Positions 25,091 to 50,484 of a stretch of 52,014 nucleotides of DNA are shown here, one piece after another (the first letter of the stretch is position 1; every line of letters begins with the position of its first letter). Both the position numbers and the translations under genes were made by a program. The stretch comes from Minisyncoccota bacterium (GTDB taxonomy: Bacteria; Patescibacteriota; Minisyncoccia; UBA6257; 2-01-FULL-56-20). The notes under the pieces were generated by a model. That model saw nothing but the letters and a program-made list of their open reading frames with translations. It was not told the origin of the DNA and made no database searches. The stretch is from positions 1 through 52,014 of the forward strand of contig JALHNY010000006.1 in NCBI GenBank assembly GCA_022843285.1. Direction: 5' to 3'.

Positions 25091-25130
25091 AAAAGGGCGG
25101 ACACAGCGGTCCGCCCTCTCTTTTTTTTTT
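25091..25130. terminator. Bidirectional intrinsic terminator
   Basis: AAAA-GGGCGGAC-6 nt-GTCCGCCC-TCTC-T10 between convergent genes. Confidence 0.85.
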
Positions 25131-25140
25131 GCTCGCCCGG

Positions 25141-25629
25141 TCACGCTGCGAGCTTCACCTCTTCTGCCGCACCGGAATCCGGTGGCGGCTTTGGTCTGAA
25201 CGCGTCTATGGGGATGGGCTCCCTCTCGTCAGGGTCGGAGCCATCGTCTGATGGGTCTCCCCTGAACTGATCCCTGAACCACATCACCCAGTGCGCAAAG
25301 TTCAGCGCCGCGGTGCCGAGCAACCCCCACCAGAGCACGGCGCGCAGCCACTCCCAAACCGGCAGGTCCTCCAAGTAGTACAGGGAGACAGCCGAGAAAC
25401 CGGCGTAGGTGCCGTAGAAGAACAGGCTCACCACGAGCTTGAACGTCGTCATGCTCTGAGCGATGCTCGCGCTCCACTGCTCAGCAGGCTTCGTGCAGAA
25501 AACGCTGAGCAGCCAGAGGACGGTGAGCAGAGCCCACACCCTCACATTGAAATACGACAGGGATAAAAACCCGTACGCGGTAAACACGAGGCTCACAGCG
25601 CCGAGCCCGTTAACGATTTTCTGTACCAC
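25141..25629 (-). CDS. Hypothetical multi-TM membrane protein
   Basis: About four hydrophobic segments and an acidic tail; GTG preceded by GGGAGGT at 6 nt. Confidence 0.7.
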   Translation of the reverse strand: MVQKIVNGLGAVSLVFTAYGFLSLSYFNVRVWALLTVLWLLSVFCTKPAEQWSASIAQSMTTFKLVVSLFFYGTYAGFSAVSLYYLEDLPVWEWLRAVLWWGLLGTAALNFAHWVMWFRDQFRGDPSDDGSDPDEREPIPIDAFRPKPPPDSGAAEEVKLAA

Positions 25630-25669
25630 CTAGATACCTCCCGAGAAAAGAATTTGAATAGCTGGGCTA

Positions 25670-25697
25670 CTTATACCACGAACTCAGTTACTGGCAA
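25670..25697 (-). promoter_or_regulatory. Promoter TTGCCA-N16-TATAAG (TGG before -10)
   Basis: The -35 begins at the first base after the lysS stop codon. Confidence 0.6.
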
Positions 25698-47694: not shown

Positions 47695-49830
47695 ATGCCA
47701 GTGGTATCTCTCCTAGACACCCCCCTGCACTCCCTGCGGGGCATCGGCCCGCGCATGCTCAAGCCCCTCGAGCGGCTGGGGCTCAAGACCGTCCGGGACC
47801 TCCTCTGGCACTTCCCCACCCGGTACGACGACTACGTGGACATCGTGCCAATCGCGGAGCTCTCCGGGGGCACCCAGGCCACGGTTGCCGCGCGGGTCGA
47901 GAAGATTGAGGCGCGCCGATCCTTCCGGAACCGGAAGCTGACCGTCACGGAGGCCGTGCTGCGCGACGAGACCGGCACCGTCACGGCGACGTGGTTCAAC
48001 CAGTCCTACGTCGCCAAGCAGCTCGCCCCGGGGACCGCGGGCTTCTTTGCCGGCAAGGTCAGCGAGCGCGGCGGCACCCTCTCCCTCTCCAACCCGGTCT
48101 TCGAGCGCGCGCGTGAGGGCGGAGACCAGCGCCACACCGGGCGCCTCGTGCCGGTGTACCCCGAGACGCGCGGCATCACCTCGCGCGGGATCCGGTACGT
48201 CGTCATGCCCATTCTCCAGGAGCTCGGGTCCCTCCCAGATCCCTTCGAGGAGGTCATGGCGGGCATGGGGTACCCGTCCCGCCTCGATGCGCTCCGGTCC
48301 GTGCACTTCCCCGACACGCGCGAGGAGGCTGCGCGGGCCCTGGAGCGCTTCACCTGCGAAGATCTCTTCCTGCTCCAACTCTCGGGCGCCCTCACCAGGG
48401 CCGAGCTCATCCAGGCGAGCTCTCCCGCGCTGGGAGTGCCGGTCGAGGAGCTCAGGAGCATGGTCTCGAGCCTCCCCTTCACCCTGACCGGGACCCAGAA
48501 GAAGTCCCTGTGGGAGGTCATCCAGGATATCGGGAAGCCCCACCCCATGAACCGCCTGCTCCAGGGGGACGTGGGCTCCGGCAAGACGGTGGTGGCGGTG
48601 CTCGCCGCGCACGTCGCAGCCCGCTCGGGTCACCAGTCCGCCATCATGGCACCGACGGACGTCCTCGCGCGCCAGCACTTCGAGACCTTCGTGAAGTCGC
48701 TCTCGTGGCTGGACGGCACGGGAGCGCTGCCCACCGCCTGCATCATCTCCGGCAACCACGGCGAGCTGGTGTACCCCGAGGGCCTGCGCAGCACGGTGAA
48801 GCCAGCCAAGGTGCGCGAGCTCATAGCGGCCGGCAAGGTCGACGTCGCGATCGGCACGCACGCCCTGATTTCCGGCGGCACGGAGTTCGCGAAGCTCGGC
48901 TTCGTCGCGATCGACGAGCAGCACCGGTTCGGCGTGGAGCAGCGCAAGGCGCTCGCCGGGGGCCGCAAGACCGTCCCGCACTTCCTGAGCATGACCGCCA
49001 CCCCCATCCCGCGCACGATCATGCTCACGGCGTTCGGGGACCTCTCCACCTCGCTCATCACCGAGGTGCCGTCCGGGAGGAAGCCCGTGCGGACGGCGGT
49101 CGTGGAGCCATCCGGGCGGGACGGCATGTACCGGGACATCGAGGCGGAGCTGGCCGCCGGGCGCCAGGCGTTCTTCGTCTGCCCGCTCATCGAGCACGCG
49201 GAGTTCGACGCGACCCTGTCCCCCGCCGCGCAGGCGAAGCGCGAGGCGCTCCTCGAGGCAAAGTCCGTGGCCCAGGCTGCCGAGCACGTGCGCGATGCGC
49301 TGCCCCGCCGCCACGTCGCGATGCTGCACGGGAAGATGAAGGCTGCCGAGAAGGCCGAGGTCATGGATGACTTCAAGGCCGGCAACGTGGACGTGCTCGT
49401 CTCCACGACGGTCATCGAGGTGGGCGTGGACGTGCCCAACGCGAGTGTCATGGCGGTCGAGAGCGCGGACCGCTTCGGCCTCGCGCAGCTCCACCAGCTC
49501 CGGGGCCGCATCGGGCGCGGCGAGCACGGCGGCACCTGCTACCTCATCGCCGAATCGGACGCCAGGGCCGCCCGGGAGCGCCTCCTGCTGCTCACCAAGG
49601 TCACGGACGGGTTCACACTCGCCGAGCACGACCTGCGCCTGCGCGGCCCGGGGCAGCTCCTCGGCGCCAGCCAGAGCGGCATCCCCGACCTCGCCATGCA
49701 GCACCTCGGGAACGCGGAGCTGGTCAAGAAAACCCGCGAGGCGGTCTCGCAGGCCCTCGCTGCCGGGGACATCACCAAGGGCATCCTCCTGGAGCTCAAG
49801 CGGATGCGGGAGGCGCTGCACCGCGAGTAA
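47695..49830 (+). CDS. recG: ATP-dependent DNA helicase RecG
   Basis: RLLQGDVGSGKT, DEQHRFG, MTATPIPRT, QLHQLRGRIGRG; start moved to MPVVS. Confidence 0.98.
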   Translation: MPVVSLLDTPLHSLRGIGPRMLKPLERLGLKTVRDLLWHFPTRYDDYVDIVPIAELSGGTQATVAARVEKIEARRSFRNRKLTVTEAVLRDETGTVTATWFNQSYVAKQLAPGTAGFFAGKVSERGGTLSLSNPVFERAREGGDQRHTGRLVPVYPETRGITSRGIRYVVMPILQELGSLPDPFEEVMAGMGYPSRLDALRSVHFPDTREEAARALERFTCEDLFLLQLSGALTRAELIQASSPALGVPVEELRSMVSSLPFTLTGTQKKSLWEVIQDIGKPHPMNRLLQGDVGSGKTVVAVLAAHVAARSGHQSAIMAPTDVLARQHFETFVKSLSWLDGTGALPTACIISGNHGELVYPEGLRSTVKPAKVRELIAAGKVDVAIGTHALISGGTEFAKLGFVAIDEQHRFGVEQRKALAGGRKTVPHFLSMTATPIPRTIMLTAFGDLSTSLITEVPSGRKPVRTAVVEPSGRDGMYRDIEAELAAGRQAFFVCPLIEHAEFDATLSPAAQAKREALLEAKSVAQAAEHVRDALPRRHVAMLHGKMKAAEKAEVMDDFKAGNVDVLVSTTVIEVGVDVPNASVMAVESADRFGLAQLHQLRGRIGRGEHGGTCYLIAESDARAARERLLLLTKVTDGFTLAEHDLRLRGPGQLLGASQSGIPDLAMQHLGNAELVKKTREAVSQALAAGDITKGILLELKRMREALHRE

Positions 49831-50404
49831 AAGAAAAAGCCGGCTGCGAAGCAGCGCGACTTTTTTCTTTTCGGCTTACCTCCCGTTCTTCGCGCGCGGT
49901 GCGCTCGAGCTGGGTGAGGTAGCCGTCCAAACCAGAGACGTTGAACTTCTCGATGAGCGACCGGAGGGTCGCCACCTCGACCTCGTAGGCTTTGGACTCG
50001 TCGTCCTCGCCCAGGAGGTGCTCAATCTCGTGGTTGATCATTGCCGCCAGTGCGTACACCTGCGGCGTGTCGGATTCTGCCGCCAGCAGATCACGGATGA
50101 ACCGTGAGTCCACGTAGACGAAGACACCCGCTCGGTTCTCTGGAACGAACATCGCCGACCGCTTCAGGCTTTTGACCTGGTCCCCGGTCAGCTTGTTCCT
50201 CTTTGCGAACTCCGCAATGTCCCCATCCGTCACGAAGAGAATCTGGCTCTTCATGAGCGTGGCGACCCGCTCCTGCGGGAGCATCCGCGCTGCGCGGTTC
50301 AGAGAGGCAGAGAGTTTCTGCGTCTCTTTTTCCGTCAGCGGTTTCGCAACCGCAGTTGCCGTGACGAGTAGCGCGAAGAGCGCCACAAGCACCATTCTTC
50401 TCAT
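49796..50404 (-). CDS. Exported protein with HExxH zinc-metallopeptidase motif; C-terminus possibly frameshift-extended
   Basis: Signal peptide; NHEIEHLLGEDDESKAYE; GGGAGG SD; the frame reads through the terminator and overlaps the recG end. Confidence 0.7.
   Translation of the reverse strand: MRRMVLVALFALLVTATAVAKPLTEKETQKLSASLNRAARMLPQERVATLMKSQILFVTDGDIAEFAKRNKLTGDQVKSLKRSAMFVPENRAGVFVYVDSRFIRDLLAAESDTPQVYALAAMINHEIEHLLGEDDESKAYEVEVATLRSLIEKFNVSGLDGYLTQLERTAREEREVSRKEKSRAASQPAFSFTRGAAPPASA
49829..49870. terminator. Bidirectional terminator-like element
   Basis: AAAGAAAAAG..GCTGC-GAA-GCAGC..CTTTTTTCTTT. Confidence 0.65.
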
Positions 50405-50451
50405 AACTTTCTGCCTCCCTGTAAAAGAAATAGGTATTTCTAACTAGCCGA

Positions 50452-50479
50452 ATTATACCAAATTTCCCGTTTTTCGCAA
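50452..50479 (-). promoter_or_regulatory. Promoter TTGCGA-N16-TATAAT (TGG before -10)
   Basis: Begins 5 nt after the upstream stop codon. Confidence 0.75.
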
Positions 50480-50484
50480 CCAGC

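Follow-up and report, generated by a model that had tools for sequence, protein, structure and literature searches.

The window analyzed here is one entire contig of 52 kb (JALHNY010000006.1, 52,014 nucleotides) from a high-GC genome (~64%), and our subject is five of its protein genes, A to E (Table 1), each led by a GGAGG Shine-Dalgarno (SD) sequence, of which A, B, and C also stand behind a copy of the promoter motif TTGCNR-N13-TGGTATAA. The original prediction had seen in them a family of self-contained units of promoter, SD, open reading frame (ORF), and terminator, inserted from a common donor pool such as phage morons. Around them, the window holds the ribosomal clusters str-tuf-rpsJ, S10, and spc, together with secY-adk-map, greA, a class I lysK, dnaE, recG, the mraZ-mraW-ftsI-mur cluster, and six tRNAs. 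The genes that flank the five units are core genes (dnaE, lysK, rpsJ, rplC, tRNAs, and recG), with no prophage genes among them, a first point against mobile cassettes of phage type.

The organism fits the Candidate Phyla Radiation (CPR)/Patescibacteria, as uL30 is missing from the spc operon and its closest homologues are CPR. Loss of uL30 is a hallmark of the CPR, and in this window S5 (rpsE, 31897-32382) is followed directly by L15 (rplO, 31467-31886) with no rpmD between them. In scans of genome and metagenome contigs, the nearest relatives of the M50-like protein were all Patescibacteria/CPR metagenome-assembled genomes, at no more than 56% identity. The organism's own genome and its near relatives were represented solely by short Logan and JGI contigs, among which L001 stands for a sister lineage (identity to the window of 99% for S10, 94% for L3, and 89% for M50). 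Contigs nearly identical to the window occur in the Logan runs SRR28154519-28. The spc operon runs into secY-adk-map and then into GT2-greA-lysK (class I LysRS), not into infA-rpmJ-rpsM-rpsK-rpsD-rpoA-rplQ.

Genes A to E and their initiation signals

As the original prediction had it, GGAGG lies 7 to 9 nt ahead of the start codon in all five genes. Its remark that native ribosomal genes mostly lack this signal can be extended, since the 56 remaining protein genes of the window all lack GGAGG at a spacing of 4 to 12 nt. Sorted by their upstream sequences, the 61 protein genes fall into 33 coupled genes, which start at most 25 nt from the upstream gene (typically 'TAAcaccc ATG'), 11 leaderless-type genes with a -10 box 5 to 9 nt ahead of the start codon (including dnaE, lysK, GT2, M50, recG, trx, DUF192, a Mur ligase, and a 447-aa gene), 12 leadered genes without an SD (e.g., rplC, tuf, mraZ, and rplJ), and 5 GGAGG genes, which are exactly A to E. 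This restriction of SD-led initiation to A to E is a real oddity of the window. Assuming complementarity to the 3′ end of 16S rRNA, the five genes would be SD-led; having a leader, they would therefore rely on a strong SD, unlike the leaderless or coupled majority.

The SD is rare in more distant relatives as well. In ~160 distant CPR loci (L003 to L171), an SD-like element precedes 17 of the 332 starts of rpsL, rpsG, fusA, tuf, rplC, rpsJ, and M50, and the absence of the SD from core genes is clade-wide. Distant CPR loci also contain sporadic units made of a consensus promoter (TTGACx-17-TGnTATAAT), a 40- to 60-nt leader, GGAGG, an ORF, and a terminator (last rows of Table 1). Over 1.77 Mb of these loci, GGAGG-led ORFs numbered 185 compared to 120 to 162 for control motifs, a difference judged to be no excess in a count that is noisy without gene calls. 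In the window itself, an Rfam scan of the leaders at gathering threshold returned tRNAs only and no riboswitch or other RNA family.

Table 1. Coordinates of genes A to E, of their putative expression signals, and of units with a similar layout in distant CPR loci
Feature	Position	Strand	Description
Gene A	25141-25629	-	162 aa, 3-4 transmembrane (TM) segments, acidic Pro-rich tail; no family match
Gene A SD	25637-25642	-	GGGAGG, 7 nt before GTG start; U-rich tract ahead
Putative gene A promoter	25670-25697	-	-35 TTGCCA (25697-25692), 16-nt spacer with TGG at its end, -10 TATAAG; kept in L091, where the -10 is TACAAG
Terminator of dnaE and gene A	25094-25117		Bidirectional intrinsic, common to dnaE (+) and gene A (-); kept in L091
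Gene B	40019-40306	-	95 aa, 3 TM; SD AGGAGGTGAT at 40321-40312
Putative gene B promoter	40329-40356	-	TTGCGG-16-(TGG)TATAAA
Terminator 3′ of gene B	39982-40000	-	Followed by the rplC operon promoter (39963-39934); kept in L001
Gene C	49796-50404	-	202 aa, signal peptide, HExxHxxGExxE (H125-E136); SD GGGAGG at 50419-50414
Putative gene C promoter	50452-50479	-	TTGCGA-16-(TGG)TATAAT; L001 TTGCAA-17-(TGA)TATAAT; L172 TTGCAT-17-(TGT)TATAAT
recG/C terminator hairpin	49843-49855		Bidirectional; 13 nt past the recG stop; inside the last ~20-25 codons of the C frame
Gene D	40375-40695	-	106 aa, 3 TM; SD GAGGAGG at 40711-40705; no consensus promoter
Terminator after rpsJ	40756-40785	-	13-bp perfect inverted repeat; ends the str-tuf-rpsJ transcription unit; homologous hairpin in L001
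Gene E	46800-47513	+	237 aa, soluble, no family match; SD GGAGG at 46788-46792
Unit in L019	2530-3300		XRE-type regulator
Unit in L021	5150-6050		Lipoprotein-like
Unit in L058	3390-3920		Signal-peptide protein
Unit in L169	70-570		Unknown

The proteins encoded by these genes are mutually unrelated, which argues against a single family of cassettes; no protein similarity was found in BLASTP of B against D or in shuffle-calibrated Smith-Waterman alignments of A, B, and D. A, B, and D, with 3 to 4 TM segments, probably belong to the cell envelope as small integral membrane proteins, whereas C carries a signal peptide and E is soluble. Searches with A to E returned nothing in Pfam (E ≤ 5) and NCBIfam, no match in PHROG or in the PADLOC defence-system scan, and no relatives in five scans of the IMG/VR viral contigs.

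Hairpins stand where 3′ terminators had been predicted for A, B, and C, with the corrections that A has its terminator in common with dnaE and that the hairpin of C lies inside the annotated reading frame. The picture of complete promoter-SD-ORF-terminator units holds for A, B, and C, which would each be monocistronic, and does not extend to D and E, for which no clear promoter was recognized. Gene E is flanked by tRNA-Arg (46645-46717) and tRNA-Lys (47576-47649), and may be co-transcribed with the former; the overlap with tRNA-Arg shows a longer ORF that starts at 46407 to be spurious. Examined as a possible tRNA-associated island, the site of E showed no integrase, and its sole repeat came from the T arms, which are generically similar in the two tRNAs.

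Gene C is preceded by a small conserved hairpin (AGAAAT-ACCT-ATTTCT) in its 5′ untranslated region (UTR). Its reading frame overlaps the 3′ end of recG by 35 nt (49796-49875 region). In L001, the recG/C terminator hairpin has kept its stem and altered its loop, and a distant homologue of C, P0023, lacks the C-terminal tail; the functional C protein probably ends near residue 175.

The promoter motif and the promoters of core genes

The motif TTGCNR-N13-TGGTATAA has exactly three matches in the 52 kb, all on the minus strand (25671-25697, 40330-40356, and 50453-50479), and none in 100 dinucleotide shuffles of the window, so that the three copies with an identical 16-nt spacer reported in the original prediction are confirmed. 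Each copy precedes a small gene without a known family (A, B, and C). The distances to the upstream stop codons had been given correctly as well: the -35 element starts 0 nt past the stop of lysK (TAG 25698-25700) for gene A, 18 nt past that of gene D (TAA 40375-40377) for gene B, and 5 nt past that of the 447-aa gene (TAG 50485-50487) for gene C. D and E have no motif promoter, and D, for this reason, gives no support to the idea of a cassette family.

The elements of the motif are not specific to genes without a known family. A relaxed scan of the window yielded 15 sigma-70-like sites, including sites before tRNA-Thr (TTGCGC-17-TGCTATAAA) and rplC (TTGCCA-18-TGTTACACT, 39963-39934) and further ones before tuf, rpsL, tRNA-Lys, mraZ, rplJ, and greA. 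Extended -10 boxes (TGG/TGn; TGnTAnnnT) are found 5 to 8 nt ahead of the start codons of recG (TGGTATCCT), GT2 (TGGTATACT), the 447-aa gene (TGGTACAAT), trx (TGCTACACT), and hyp225. Moreover, the -10 boxes of M50, tRNA-Arg, tRNA-Lys, and recG have been conserved in L001, in contrast to the intergenic bases around them. Since the same elements stand before core genes, TTGC, TGG, and TAyAmT belong to the general promoter vocabulary of this organism, of which A, B, and C show the best matches. Promoters starting right after an upstream stop codon are normal in this genome, that of GT2, for example, overlapping the 3′ end of map.

Judged by its sequence, the motif is a canonical sigma-70 extended -10 housekeeping promoter: TTGnnn, a spacer of 16 to 18 nt, TGn, and TAnnnT are all present upstream of a gene, and they are kept at orthologous positions. 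The promoter and UTR of gene A are ~96% identical between the window and L091. For gene B, L001 has kept the -10 box and the SD, with its -35 element now 18 nt upstream, within the rpsJ terminator; for gene C, the L001 spacer measures 17 nt. The identical 16-nt spacer has thus not been kept in the orthologues.

This vocabulary also bears on gene annotation, for which the leaderless and SD-less regime matters when start codons are called. The start of recG, for instance, is better placed at ATG 47695 (711 aa, as in L001), with the TGGTATCCT -10 box 8 nt upstream, the longer version from GTG 47677 being less likely.

Inheritance and origin of the five genes

Genes A, B, C, and E occupy the same positions in the nearest relatives, namely B, C, and E in L001 and A in L091, a comparison for which the original prediction had suggested looking out for empty or alternative cassettes; only D is absent from L001. 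The L091 orthologue of A is 72 to 73% identical (BLASTP 72%, codon alignment 72.8%) and also lies between lysK and dnaE. In L001, the orthologue of B is 63 to 64% identical at the same site (tblastn 64.1%, codon alignment 63.2%), that of C is 82% identical in the same slot with promoter, UTR hairpin, and SD all kept, and that of E is 64% identical between the same tRNAs. The ratios of nonsynonymous to synonymous substitution rates (dN/dS) are all below 1 (A 0.445, B 0.19, C 0.24, D 0.62, and E 0.34), compared to 0 to 0.17 for core genes (ribosomal proteins, EF-G, EF-Tu, M50, RecG, and the ends of lysK and dnaE). These values mark A, B, C, and E as real genes on which purifying selection acts, though in relaxed form. 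The GC content at third codon positions (GC3), which had been proposed as a check, is native in A (0.79), B (0.83), and E (0.845), the mean of the other genes being 0.85 ± 0.09; the remaining two, C and D, are low.

For gene C, conservation reaches much further. A profile search recovered distant homologues, and HExxHxxGExxE is invariant in six homologues. In contig L172, a C homologue (50% identical) lies directly downstream of a homologue of the 447-aa protein (41% identical) and has TTGCAT-17-TGTTATAAT, a ~35-nt leader, AGGAGG, and a terminator. In L173, a CPR contig of 44% GC, the C-family gene alone has a G-rich SD-like element, its neighbors being leaderless or having A-rich leaders. As the layout of C recurs in distant relatives, its expression format is old and a property of the gene family, not a docking scar.

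We consider it likely that the motif marks near-consensus housekeeping promoters on vertically inherited, fast-evolving envelope genes and not mobile cassettes. In the proposed model, each promoter would drive one monocistronic unit consisting of a 15- to 40-nt 5′ UTR, a GGAGG SD, the ORF, and an intrinsic terminator. The units would encode small envelope proteins, A and B being membrane proteins with 3 to 4 TM segments and C a signal-peptide HExxHxxGExxE protein, and the compactness of the genome would explain why they sit in the short stretches that separate core transcription units. They would descend vertically within the lineage, evolving several-fold faster than core genes while purifying selection is kept, and their mutual likeness would result from the consensus of a shared RNA polymerase and a shared 16S anti-SD, not from a shared mobile ancestor.

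The opposite proposal, that of phage-moron-like mobile promoter-SD-ORF-terminator cassettes from one donor pool that insert independently of site, can claim that the modular structure of the units is real, that the ribosome-binding regions of B and D are alike beyond the SD (GCCnAGGAGGT..TTGAAAAT, z = 5.7), and that TTCTTTT-N3-GGGAGG is common to A and C. We regard it as highly improbable nonetheless, since the positions kept in relatives contradict it and the promoter elements also stand on core genes, both of them findings that the original prediction itself had named as refuting, and since spacer length varies between orthologues, PHROG and viral collections gave no match, and the sole variable gene, D, has no motif. 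Insertion without an integrase or att repeats had been suggested; indeed, no integrase and no shared direct or inverted flanking repeats of at least 10 nt were found around the units, which do not correspond to integron or other cassettes, and it is the insertion itself that synteny contradicts. Together with the native GC3 of A, B, and E, these results leave a common donor pool or a recent arrival unsupported.

Several observations weigh against vertically inherited housekeeping units. The 16-nt spacer is found in all three motif promoters and in one of eight recognizable core promoters (Fisher p ~0.02), a weak signal, its spacing having changed in the L001 orthologues of B and C. GC3 is low in C (0.73, 1.3 standard deviations below the mean) and especially in D (0.61), and not all lineages carry D. 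M50 identity drops from 89% to at most 56% between the sister lineage and distant CPR relatives, and because of this gap A, B, and E are shown to be inherited vertically over short distances only (dS 0.4 to 1.6). The five SD-led genes are lineage-restricted and located at transcription-unit borders, which would also fit old acquisitions with foreign translation signals. Finally, the observations consist of sequence signals, conservation, synteny, and evolutionary rates, from which we infer that the promoters are active, where transcription starts, that the SD is used, and what the proteins do, and the 3′ end of the 16S rRNA lies outside the window.

Old acquisitions of this kind would be ancient xenologues, that is, SD-led units taken from SD-using bacteria (e.g., hosts) or their phages, ameliorated, and then inherited vertically, with D as the latest arrival. 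They would account for an SD in only 5 of 61 genes in a clade whose core genes are SD-less, for the lineage restriction of all five genes, A and E having no homologues other than close ones and none of the five a family match, and for their placement at transcription-unit borders. D is absent from L001, low in GC3, and strain-variable, and a few distant CPR loci (e.g., L039, L022, and L040) carry different small genes, unrelated to it, in the rpsJ-rplC gap in which it lies. This gap usually measures 90 to 260 nt and is empty in distant CPR, and such variable occupation marks it as a permissive place where two transcription units meet. No donor was found, however, among 5.8 billion proteins or in viral collections, the pair of the 447-aa gene and C has been kept with the SD at deep divergence within the CPR, and neither the native GC3 of A, B, and E nor the lack of an integrase and of flanking repeats points to acquisition. 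The strongest compositional outlier of the window is also instructive. This low-GC island (GC ~0.58) at 6731-10461 on the minus strand contains a 47-aa TM ORF (GC3 0.42) translationally coupled to a 1,196-aa Lamin Tail Domain (LTD) protein (GC3 0.62), and is likely a horizontal acquisition. It has neither an SD nor a TGGTATAA promoter, and as the most foreign segment lacks these signals, foreign origin cannot simply be equated with SD and motif promoter. Altogether, we consider the xenologue origin unlikely.

Gene D deserves separate mention. It lies within a ~410-nt segment (~40338-40749), between the rpsJ terminator and the -10 box of B, that is absent from L001, and it has the lowest GC3 (2.6 standard deviations below the mean) and the highest dN/dS of the five; D could have been gained recently or been lost in L001, or it could be a young gene. 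Among strains without other differences (L002, L085, and L174), the first loop of D (40590-40640) varies by a dense patch of substitutions, with 91% amino acid identity compared to 100% for the flanks. The L174 allele is shortened to 98 aa.

An origin de novo, or through rapid turnover of small membrane genes, would have A, B, and D born in permissive gaps, B and D reusing a duplicated ribosome-binding region. The similarity of these two regions at an offset of 391 nt and the indel that D represents relative to L001 are in line with it, as are the high dN/dS of A and D and the short, simple 3-TM architecture of the proteins. No homologue of A was found beyond sister lineages, and B and D had no family or viral-contig matches, no distant-homologue search having been made for either; given the low sensitivity of searches with short TM proteins, such missing homologues are weak evidence for a de novo origin. 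On the other side, dN/dS is below 1 throughout, the value for B implies an established function, and C has distant homologues and hence did not arise de novo. We consider this origin very unlikely and retain the vertical inheritance of envelope genes with housekeeping promoters as the best account of the window.

Two further loci of the window should be recorded. A 225-aa ORF on the minus strand between two tRNA-Thr genes (20960-21637) has a GC3 of 0.59, a leaderless-type start, and weak helix-turn-helix and HNH-endonuclease PHROG matches; it is possibly a mobile gene, homing-endonuclease-like or of another type. Between fusA and tuf, a gene coupled to fusA (42397-42864, minus strand) encodes a 155-aa membrane protein with a bacterial PH domain (bPH_2), which is kept in L001 (80% identical) and in the distant locus L022 (43%).

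Implications and comparison with known systems

The window shows clearly which promoter and initiation signals one uncultured high-GC member of the Patescibacteria has, with extended -10 promoters positioned for leaderless mRNAs, coupled genes inside operons, and hardly any SD. Beyond this, a tentative extension, possible but in our opinion doubtful, is that initiation is split in this lineage, and perhaps throughout Paceibacteria-like CPR, between a leaderless or coupled, SD-less majority and a few lineage-specific envelope or secreted genes with a long-conserved promoter-leader-SD arrangement, among them the HExxHxxGExxE family next to the 447-aa gene, where the arrangement has outlasted deep divergence. 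If so, these genes could form a separately regulated translational class, e.g., with an output tied to anti-SD availability, or alternatively carry the lasting signature of acquired surface genes with a part in the episymbiotic lifestyle. Small envelope proteins that are SD-led and fast evolving could plausibly act at the surface of an episymbiont or in its interaction with the host, and would lend themselves readily to expression studies. Integrase-free mobile expression cassettes in the CPR would have been a new type of mobile element, and the evidence argues against them.

The likeness to phage morons that inspired the original prediction lies in the predicted single-gene units of A, B, and C, each with its own putative promoter and terminator and an accessory membrane or exported product. 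It ends there, since A to E are located outside any prophage, are fixed in position in relatives (D excepted), and have no phage homologues, A, B, and E moreover being of native composition. The comparison with sigma-70 (sigma-A) extended -10 promoters (TGnTATAAT with a TTGACA-like -35) is far closer: TTGCNR, a 16-nt spacer, TG at -15/-14, and the -10 box TATAAn all agree, the copies stand 22 to 47 nt ahead of the start codon, and their elements are also used by core genes, as expected of such promoters. No structural difference was apparent, and the organism would simply favor TTGC and TGG variants in these putative promoters.

Gene C defines a small uncharacterized protein family that is secreted, carries HExxHxxGExxE, and is linked to a large neighbor, likewise secreted. 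Like the zincin metallopeptidases (HExxH; minimal SprT-like or Zincin_1 types), the family has an invariant HExxHxxGExxE on a long helix and a signal peptide, whereas it lacks any significant sequence, profile, or fold match to them. C gave no match in Pfam, NCBIfam, or PDB sequences, with faint SprT-like and lethal-factor similarities at E > 1, and a Foldseek search with its AlphaFold2 model against PDB and BFVD returned no significant fold match; this model reached a mean confidence (pLDDT) of 81 from six sequences, the one from four near-identical sequences (pLDDT 47) being unusable. In all probability, C is a minimal metalloprotein of zincin-like type, secreted and acting together with the large secreted 447-aa protein.

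In the literature, no description was found of SD sequences confined to accessory genes in otherwise leaderless Patescibacteria. Leaderless-dominated or SD-poor regimes are known from Actinobacteria, Deinococcus-Thermus, and Bacteroidota. This window resembles them in the -10 box placed 5 to 9 nt from the start codon in most first genes, in the short stop-to-start spacing inside transcription units, and in the rarity of the SD; what would set it apart is that the predicted use of the SD is restricted to five lineage-restricted accessory genes.

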